Shown here: piece after piece, positions 25,946 to 26,264 of the stretch
Layout of the letters: each line of letters opens with the position of its first letter
How positions within the stretch are numbered: the stretch's first letter is position 1
NCBI GenBank assembly: GCA_016186325.1
Contig: JACPLW010000001.1
Span: forward strand, 187 to 64,186
Source: Parcubacteria group bacterium
Lineage (GTDB): Bacteria; Patescibacteriota; Minisyncoccia; UBA10092
DNA length: 64,000 bases
Reading direction: 5' to 3'
The notes under the pieces: model-generated
Told to the model about the DNA's origin: nothing
Database searches by the model: none
The model's input: the letters and a program-made list of their open reading frames with translations, nothing else
Program-made: the position numbers and the translations under genes

Positions 25946-26225
25946 CCCCGCACCTGTACAGGTGCGGGGGCAGATTCGCCCATTTGCGGGTAGGGGCCAA
26001 CTCCCGGGAAGACTAACCCCCTTGGTATTACCCCGCAAATGAGACGCTGTATTGGATGGCAGAGCGGAGTTGAACCGTACGTCATCCGGGATAAGCCTGC
26101 CGTACCCACCAGGGCACTCGTCGTAAACGAGCGGGAATCGAACCCATTTTCCGTTCAGGTTCCTCCAGACGACCCACCGGGTCTGCCACCCAAAGTCCGA
26201 CTTTCGAACTTCCGAACTTTTTAAC
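25946..26225 (-). ncRNA. candidate ~280-nt structured small RNA of unknown family
   Basis: GC-rich (~58%) island in an AT-rich genome. The minus-strand promoter TTGACA-16-TATACT (26260-26233) and intrinsic terminator (hairpin 25946-25969 followed on the RNA by UCUCUUAUUUUU) define a unit that is convergent with ddl and downstream of murF. Confidence 0.4.
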
Positions 26226-26264
26226 TAAACCTAGTATATCAAATCCACAGAATTTGTCAAGTGC

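Follow-up and report, generated by a model that had tools for sequence, protein, structure and literature searches.

A candidate accessory RNA gene with a tRNA-like core between convergent murF and ddl genes in a member of the Parcubacteria

The 64-kb stretch of DNA analysed in this study (the window), from an uncultured groundwater bacterium, holds, between two cell-wall genes, what is probably a stand-alone RNA gene. Sequence comparison and structure prediction suggested that the gene is autonomous and encodes a structured RNA of ~290 nt, both accessory and lineage-specific, which would act as a tRNA mimic and would likely be matured by tRNA-processing enzymes, a reading to which we assign a probability of roughly one in two. 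The CPR/Patescibacteria account for a large share of bacterial diversity and, to our knowledge, almost nothing is known about their regulatory and structural RNAs. The locus represents a testable candidate tRNA mimic that was missed by existing family models.

The candidate RNA unit (minus strand, 26260-25934) occupies the 346-nt gap between ddl (24659-25918, plus strand) and a convergent murF-type Mur ligase gene (26265-27473, minus strand). The encoded MurF was 100% identical to a protein of a "Parcubacteria group bacterium" MAG, and its relatives carried the annotation Candidatus Azambacteria. The wider neighbourhood is a dcw-type cluster (mraZ, rsmH, a small ftsL-like ORF, ftsI/PBP, ddl, and murF) flanked by housekeeping genes; the other neighbours of the unit included a PBP, a hydrolase, galT, and more housekeeping genes. 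As called mechanically, the ddl ORF encodes 419 aa from a TTG start, ~30 aa more than is usual among relatives (six loci have 374-397 aa and L006 has 409 aa), and overlaps the end of the PBP gene by 17 nt; its true start probably lies further downstream. Elsewhere in the window, an 874-aa ORF (14723-17347, plus strand) showed no Pfam match at E<=0.001.

GC content was 0.52-0.58 over positions 25900-26199, as compared to 0.397 for the whole window, and no other non-coding GC island in the window was as large. An earlier note on this DNA had put the body of the unit at ~58% GC, in agreement with these values, in a genome of 35-40% GC, of which the window occupies the upper edge (39.7%). The predicted minimum free energy (MFE) of the unit was -125.4 kcal/mol (z = -3.97), and none of 200 dinucleotide shuffles was as stable. 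No conserved ORF was found in the unit: possible peptides, with sequences read by eye, differed between the window and the homologous locus L169 (see below), and a protein-coding reading of the region was rejected because its ORFs were not conserved.

On the minus strand, the unit is preceded by a promoter (26260-26233) with a -35 element TTGACA (26260-26255), a 16-nt spacer, and a -10 element TATACT (26238-26233). This arrangement, which had been read in the same way in the earlier note, gave 11/12 consensus matches, and an extended -10 TG (26241-26240) ends the spacer. The 28-nt promoter string occurred as a single copy in the window, where 0 chance matches were expected. At the other end, a strong intrinsic terminator (25969-25934, minus strand) consists of the stem-loop CCCCGCACCU-GUAC-AGGUGCGGGG, followed by UCUCUUAUUUUU, and ends 16 nt short of the ddl stop codon (25916-25918). 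Its hairpin (25969-25946) had likewise been recognized, although with an 11-bp stem and a 3-nt loop instead of the 10-bp stem, with 8 G-C pairs, and 4-nt loop returned by the prediction tool. These features upheld the view that a discrete GC-rich unit, non-coding and equipped with a promoter and a terminator of its own, lies downstream of murF. Based on these signals, the sigma-70-type promoter with its extended -10 would start the transcript near position 26226, ~35 nt upstream of the tRNA-like core, and the intrinsic terminator would stop it just short of ddl. Because only 4 nt separate the murF stop codon from the -35 element, read-through from murF could also enter the unit.

Over the whole window, Rfam 15 at gathering thresholds yielded nothing but four true tRNAs. 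At E<=10, a search of the 601-nt region 25800-26400 returned only a look-alike of the terminator and a fragment of an archaeal snoRNA, in line with the earlier impression that the RNA fits no family; none of the RNase P, tmRNA, SRP, and 6S RNA models, through which the unit might have been resolved as a known RNA, gave a significant match. Candidates rejected in this way were SRP RNA (RF00169, RF01854) and 6S RNA (RF00013), both at E<=10, and tmRNA, for which ARAGORN made no call at the locus and no Rfam tmRNA family matched at E<=10. A tRNA was also rejected: RF00005 and ARAGORN called the four true tRNAs of the window and not this locus. Among related loci, Rfam searches at gathering thresholds (L001/L003/L004 and 20 others) and at E<=5-10 (the L008 spacer and 10 further loci) gave only true tRNAs and chance matches. 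In the literature on ncRNAs or tRNA-like RNAs of CPR, Parcubacteria, or Azambacteria, nothing relevant was found.

Within the predicted transcript, a tRNA-like core (the W module; 26053-26191, minus strand) was identified together with a homolog at positions 1454-1568 of L169. L169 was the one true homolog reached by synteny of MurF relatives, the other loci on this route having different RNAs or no spacer. The core is closed by a 10-bp acceptor-like stem (26191-26182 / 26063-26054), which is followed by a linker CCCGGUG (26181-26175), a 9-bp helix P2 (26173-26165 / 26089-26081) that carries an insert, and a T-arm CGG-UUCAACU-CCG (26077-26065) one nucleotide from the 3' strand, all on the minus strand. 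The T-loop string GGUUCAACUCC (26076-26066), one of two T-arm-like motifs listed in the earlier note, was found to belong to this conserved core. The module terminates in an A at 26053, and its 3' end reads ...AUCCA. With a canonical T-loop hairpin, conserved in both genomes, next to the 3' strand of the helix in which its 5' and 3' segments pair, the RNA has the structural hallmark of tRNA-like structured ncRNAs, which form a descriptive class and not a curated family.

The window and L169 have in common a 5' part, GGGUGGCAGACCCGGUGGGUC(G/U)UCUGGA, and a 3' part, CCCGGA(U/G)GA(CG/UA)UACGGUUCAACUCCGCUCUG(C/U)CAUCCAA. In this scaffold 62 of 67 nt are identical, and the two conserved stretches are separated by 75 nt in the window and 49 nt in L169. 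The murF genes of the same two genomes showed 76% identity as protein, 73% as DNA, and 48% at four-fold sites, and binomial comparison of scaffold conservation gave P~5e-15 against the four-fold sites and P~8e-5 against whole murF. Conservation of the scaffold therefore greatly exceeds that of neutral sequence and also exceeds that of the coding sequence, and the lack of conservation that would have spoken against an RNA gene was not encountered in the core. Recent horizontal transfer could also explain the high scaffold identity. When pairing was compared between the homologous loci, a check proposed in the earlier note, all 22 scaffold pairs were of standard type in the window and in L169. 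Of the five substitutions, four affect paired bases without loss of pairing (one G.U to U.G double change and two G-C to G.U changes), and one affects an unpaired base. With two sequences, this conservation of pairs is suggestive of the proposed W structure; covariation support is minimal because the module has two known members. Folded alone, both sequences adopted a three-way junction in which the acceptor-like stem and P2 coincided; the 3-bp T stem was present in the MFE structure of L169 only, that of the window pairing just GG/CC at this site. A covariance model (R1) scored L169 at 82 bits, and no further W members were found by the scaffold covariance model over 270 kb of related loci.

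A 5' leader hairpin AGUUCGA-AAG-UCGGACU (26194-26210, minus strand), predicted in MFE and centroid folds, sits 3 nt upstream of the tRNA-like core and contains GAAAGUCGGAC (26205-26195); at its position L169 has a different hairpin, CCGGCCC...GGGCCG, and GAAAGUCGGAC is absent. The 75-nt insert at the tip of P2 (26090-26164, minus strand) comprises a T-loop-like hairpin GGUUCGAUUCC (26144-26134), an 8-bp hairpin, GGGUACGGCAG (26107-26097), which is a second copy of the acceptor 5' strand, and GGCUUAUC (26097-26090). Alignment of this insert with the 49-nt insert of L169 was no better than that of shuffled sequences, 49 of 500 of which scored equally. Model R1 aligned two partial sub-copies in the window insert, one consisting of the 5' scaffold with the GGUUCGAUUCC T-loop and the other of the second 5' strand GGGUACGGCAG, which suggests that the window module is partly duplicated or nested. 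This organization would account for the two T-arm motifs seen earlier, of which the second, GGUUCGAUUCC, was not conserved in L169 and appears to derive from partial internal duplication. Downstream of the core, an irregular hairpin CAUUUGCGGG...CCCGCAAAUG (25981-26041, minus strand; MFE/centroid folds) gave no blastn match in related loci, and its assignment as a type C RNA (see below) was rejected because the type C model R2 gave no match.

The earlier note had also pointed to strings resembling the P4 strands of RNase P RNA. That the unit encodes a reduced RNase P RNA, as this would imply, is scarcely credible. While GAAAGUC and GGCUUAUC do resemble P4 strands and divergent forms of RNase P RNA are known from CPR (PMC8172020), neither RF00010 nor RF00011 matched the 601-nt region at E<=10, whereas divergent CPR forms are reported to remain recoverable by RF00010 at low thresholds (PMC8172020). 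Moreover, the two strings were not paired with each other in the MFE or centroid fold and were both missing from L169: GAAAGUCGGAC forms the local 5' hairpin, and GGCUUAUC lies in the poorly conserved insert, mid-molecule and not near the 3' end. RNase P RNA was rejected on these grounds.

By direct reading, the topology of the W module resembles that of the tRNA-like domain (TLD) of tmRNA, or of a tRNA whose anticodon arm has been replaced, the anticodon position being taken by the 75-nt insert instead of a 7-nt loop. As in the TLD (RF00023 and relatives), the 5' and 3' ends pair as an acceptor-like stem, the 3' strand is immediately preceded by a T-arm with a UUCAACU-type loop, a long helix that carries extra RNA stands in place of an anticodon loop, and a third-pair G.U with A73 is possible in one register. 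Unlike tmRNA, the W module has neither a tag frame nor pseudoknots, encloses a variable RNA of 49-75 nt, has a 10-bp stem and a 3-bp T stem, and was negative with tmRNA models and with ARAGORN at default settings. The window and L169 inserts, which could not be aligned, shared no tag frame, and a functional tmRNA was therefore rejected. Departures from tRNA include an acceptor/T stack of 13-14 bp instead of 12, the 3-bp T stem, and the lack of a convincing D-arm.

Three acceptor registers are possible in the W module. In the register GGGUGGC/GCCAUCC-A, both homologs present G1-C72, G2-C71, G3.U70, and A73, which make up the alanine identity set for AlaRS, while the register UGGCAGA/UCUGCCA-U-CCA has an encoded CCA. 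The native W sequence was not recognized by ARAGORN at default settings. At a relaxed threshold, the scaffold closed by a 7-nt loop was called as tRNA and the scaffold fused to the interior of E. coli tmRNA was called as tmRNA, whereas the type A scaffold (see below) was not called even then. The alanine set, the TLD-like three-way junction with its relaxed tmRNA call, and the position of the gene between murF and ddl would fit a reduced, tmRNA-like RNA consisting of the TLD only, or another mimic charged by AlaRS via G3.U70 and A73, with a role in ribosome rescue or in tRNA-dependent cell-wall chemistry. We nevertheless consider such a charged mimic distinctly unlikely. In addition to the missing tag frame or stop codon and the negative tmRNA searches, the G.U register requires a stack of 10+3 bp and the relaxed ARAGORN call of the grafted scaffold used a register without G.U. 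Neither a Fem-type nor an SmpB gene was found nearby, and cassettes with the same promoter are also found at loci that have no relation to the cell wall.

Relatives of the locus were reached through MurF proteins and their contigs, a route independent of the promoter pattern. In at least six related loci (L002/L003, L004, L005, L006, L172), murF and ddl abut or overlap without a spacer, and the cassette is therefore dispensable. L170 has a 53-nt spacer from which the promoter is absent, and in L007 ~100 nt are followed by a different gene instead of ddl. In five MurF-retrieved loci, the spacer opens with the ~28-nt promoter (25-27/28 identical), which is followed by different RNAs: a cloverleaf-like RNA of ~150 nt (type A) in L001, an RNA of ~120 nt (type B) and then type A in L008, and other RNAs in L171, while the cassette of L169 consists of type B, a conserved hairpin, the W homolog, type A, and a terminator. 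Different RNAs behind the same promoter, together with the absence of the spacer elsewhere, indicated that the cassette is accessory and modular. In JGI metagenome contigs, the pattern TTGACANATTCTNTNGATTTGATATA gave exact matches in 30 contigs, apparently all from groundwater-type CPR populations; conservation within the pattern holds by construction in this set, and the unbiased estimate is that from the five protein-anchored loci. Downstream of the promoter, these contigs encode many different GC-rich, terminator-ended RNAs, and in the loci scanned none of the promoter-linked RNAs matched Rfam. Among the flanks examined, convergent gene pairs were the most frequent setting: murF>/<ddl, sodA>/<fmt, and an unknown gene opposite an unnamed convergent ORF.

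In type A, 16 closing-stem pairs (GGYUCGAG, a single U/C bulge, GAGCGCG) are invariant in sequence while the interior is variable. A GGAAAAT-T-arm pattern, searched on genome contigs, retrieved as relevant only the contig of L001 itself, the remainder being true tRNA-His and unrelated sequences. In type B, the ends AAUGCUGR...YCAGCAG are conserved and the interiors are at shuffle-level identity. Type C (AAAUCCCGRCYG...GGGAGAG...GCCCUACCGCC..AAGCGGGAUGGGCAA...) is a conserved RNA of ~110 nt with three hairpins, in which 9/23 pairs covary; it follows the same promoter in the sodA>/<fmt intergenic region of L141, L142, L147, L148, L150, L155, L160, L163, and L165, has no Rfam match, and was not present in the window (model R2). 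The ~28-nt promoter string thus offers a handle for retrieving unknown GC-rich structured RNAs, among which type C is clearly covarying, from groundwater metagenomes. In multi-module cassettes (L140/L162, L143, L145, L008/L168, L169, L171), a conserved hairpin CAUCCGGCCC-(3-10 nt)-GGGCCGACAAG directly precedes the second module and is possibly a processing or leader element. L151, L152, and L159 are deletion variants with two modules joined at short repeats, for example at UCUCC/UCCCGCC between type B and the 3' portion of type A; these could be population variants or assembly artefacts. On the 1260-nt contig L153, the same promoter lies ~75 nt downstream of a tRNA gene and is followed by a 315-aa ORF of 60-70% GC, with flanking sequence of ~40% GC; the ORF had no Pfam match and no significant PHROG match and could be foreign cargo or the product of a chimeric assembly.

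Precursors of tmRNA and 4.5S RNA are matured by RNase P and tRNA-processing enzymes. The tandem arrangement of W and type A under one promoter and one terminator in L169 fits such tRNA-style punctuation processing, and its acceptor-stem-closed modules point to RNase P and 3' tRNA-processing enzymes as the likely maturation machinery. In the proposed mechanism, RNase P on the 5' side, and RNase Z or exonucleases with the CCA-adding enzyme on the 3' side, would excise the module, by analogy with the tmRNA TLD, bacterial YrlA RNAs, and mascRNA. The functional part would be the conserved ~67-nt scaffold, and the variable insert of 49-75 nt on the helix at the anticodon position would be tolerated, or be cargo. 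Once excised, the module may bind, as a tRNA mimic, to a tRNA-recognizing protein; a scan of 30 kb revealed no partner protein. Expression of these RNAs and their processing by tRNA enzymes, if they occur, would add to the few known bacterial tRNA mimics (tmRNA, Y RNAs) and could explain how reduced genomes build accessory RNA functions.

[quoted passage not shown] Like YrlA and Yrn1 of D. radiodurans, the window RNA, as read here, would be a non-coding RNA with a T-arm-bearing tRNA-mimic module. That it is a Y RNA-like RNA tethering a Ro60/Rsr protein is nonetheless very unlikely. A long closing stem with a T-arm beside the 3' strand is common to both, Y RNAs with their tRNA-like domains can be RNase P substrates (PMC4201824), and the sister type A module showed a weak match to Deinococcus_Y_RNA (21.6 bits, E=0.2). 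This score, however, was far under the 80-bit gathering threshold, and no Y RNA model matched the window RNA at E<=10. YrlA genes adjoin rsr and carry a GNCGAAN0-1G motif and a Ro-binding stem (PMC4201824), in contrast to the window RNA, in which the motif was absent by direct reading, as was the Ro-binding stem, and near which no rsr gene was found, with no TROVE domain among 25 flanking proteins. In addition, the RNA ends lie at the anticodon-side stem in YrlA and at the acceptor-like stem in W.

Two other tRNA-like RNAs provided points of comparison. As in mascRNA/MEN-beta, the W fold lies inside a longer transcript and would be able to act as a signal for RNase P and RNase Z; these elements, in contrast, are eukaryotic, form a full cloverleaf without large insert, and have no sequence relationship to W, and type A reached a sub-threshold 19.8 bits with the mascRNA model. 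With selenocysteine tRNA (RF01852), W shares a 13-bp acceptor/T stack, but it has no 7-nt anticodon loop and no UCA anticodon; the window RNA did not match RF01852, and type A modules matched it weakly (21-22 bits, under half the gathering threshold).

A decaying, functionless tRNA-derived remnant, left as an integration scar or duplicated tRNA fragment, with hairpins that merely terminate murF transcription, would be consistent with the partial tRNA-like 3' fragments that follow three tRNA genes of the window, with the partly duplicated appearance of the module, and with the missing spacer in many relatives. Such a remnant is unlikely: the scaffold is conserved far above the neutral level with its pairing kept, a dedicated, near-perfect, and highly conserved promoter lies upstream, and relatives without the spacer need no terminator at this site.

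A different division of labour was also considered, in which the conserved closing stems and the invariant promoter serve only as a scaffold for expression and processing and the hypervariable, GC-rich interior is the cargo (a decoy, a guide, or captured foreign sequence). Unrelated RNAs behind the same promoter at the same loci in different relatives would fit a cargo function, as would the invariant closing stems and varying interiors of type A, the kept ends and shuffle-level interiors of type B, the W inserts that cannot be aligned, the variable presence of the cassette with its deletion variants, and the L153 promoter preceding an ORF of 60-70% GC. We regard it as doubtful, since the inserts may be plain unconstrained expansions, the window RNA had no antisense target within the window, and no recombinase, reverse transcriptase, or Cas-like gene was found near the locus. 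Blastn of the window RNA against phage and plasmid collections likewise gave no match, and IMG/VR viral contigs contained no copy of the promoter pattern or of either W scaffold strand; a double T-loop pattern was non-specific on viral contigs, where it matched tandem phage tRNAs. Should the hypervariable interiors be the functional part, this would constitute a new kind of RNA cassette system.

More broadly, the Azambacteria-like Parcubacteria clade may, as a tentative proposal, possess an undescribed modular RNA system of diversifying function. Its hallmarks would be a near-invariant promoter of ~28 nt, made up of the extended -10, the conserved spacer, and the first ~10 transcribed bases, and tandem modules with hypervariable interiors and invariant closing stems, some of them tRNA-like. 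The cassettes would lie mostly between convergent housekeeping genes, where flanks were examined, and turn over rapidly among close relatives; the window RNA would be one such module, with a role, for example, as a tRNA or RNA decoy in conflict with phage, host, or competitor. Rapid cassette turnover and conserved ends around hypervariable interiors would fit such a modular RNA cassette system.

Directly 3' of tRNA-Glu (29494-29567) in the window, positions 29570-29640 (plus strand) hold a diverged copy of the 3' ~45 nt of a tRNA-Glu (GACGCUAAAACCUGGGUUCGAUUCCCCGUAGCGGUA), which was not called as tRNA and resembles a displaced tRNA 3' end of the kind that integration into a tRNA gene leaves behind. 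Directly 3' of tRNA-Lys (42178-42252), positions 42253-42350 (plus strand) resemble the 3' two-thirds of a tRNA, starting with a repeat of the AGCAACUCC of that tRNA; a hairpin replaces the anticodon loop and is followed by a long extra arm, a T-arm CCAGG-UCCGAUU-CCUGG, and then UGGGGGC-A, while a 5' acceptor strand to match is missing. On the minus strand, positions 1-100, which lie downstream of tRNA-Leu (187-103), contain a GC-rich hairpin, a T-arm, and then CUCGAGC-A (GAGGGUUCAACUCCCUC-CUCGAGCA), an element that resembles the 3' end of type A and runs off the end of the window. In Acidobacteria/Bryobacterales MAGs (L129, L131, L132, L137), a conserved element of ~130 nt ends in GGCGGAAAAUNCGGGUUCGAUUCCCGUUAGCGCUACCA, which corresponds to a T-arm, an acceptor 3' strand, and CCA; it has no 5' tRNA half, it was not called by ARAGORN, and it may be part of a permuted or split tRNA-like RNA or tmRNA.
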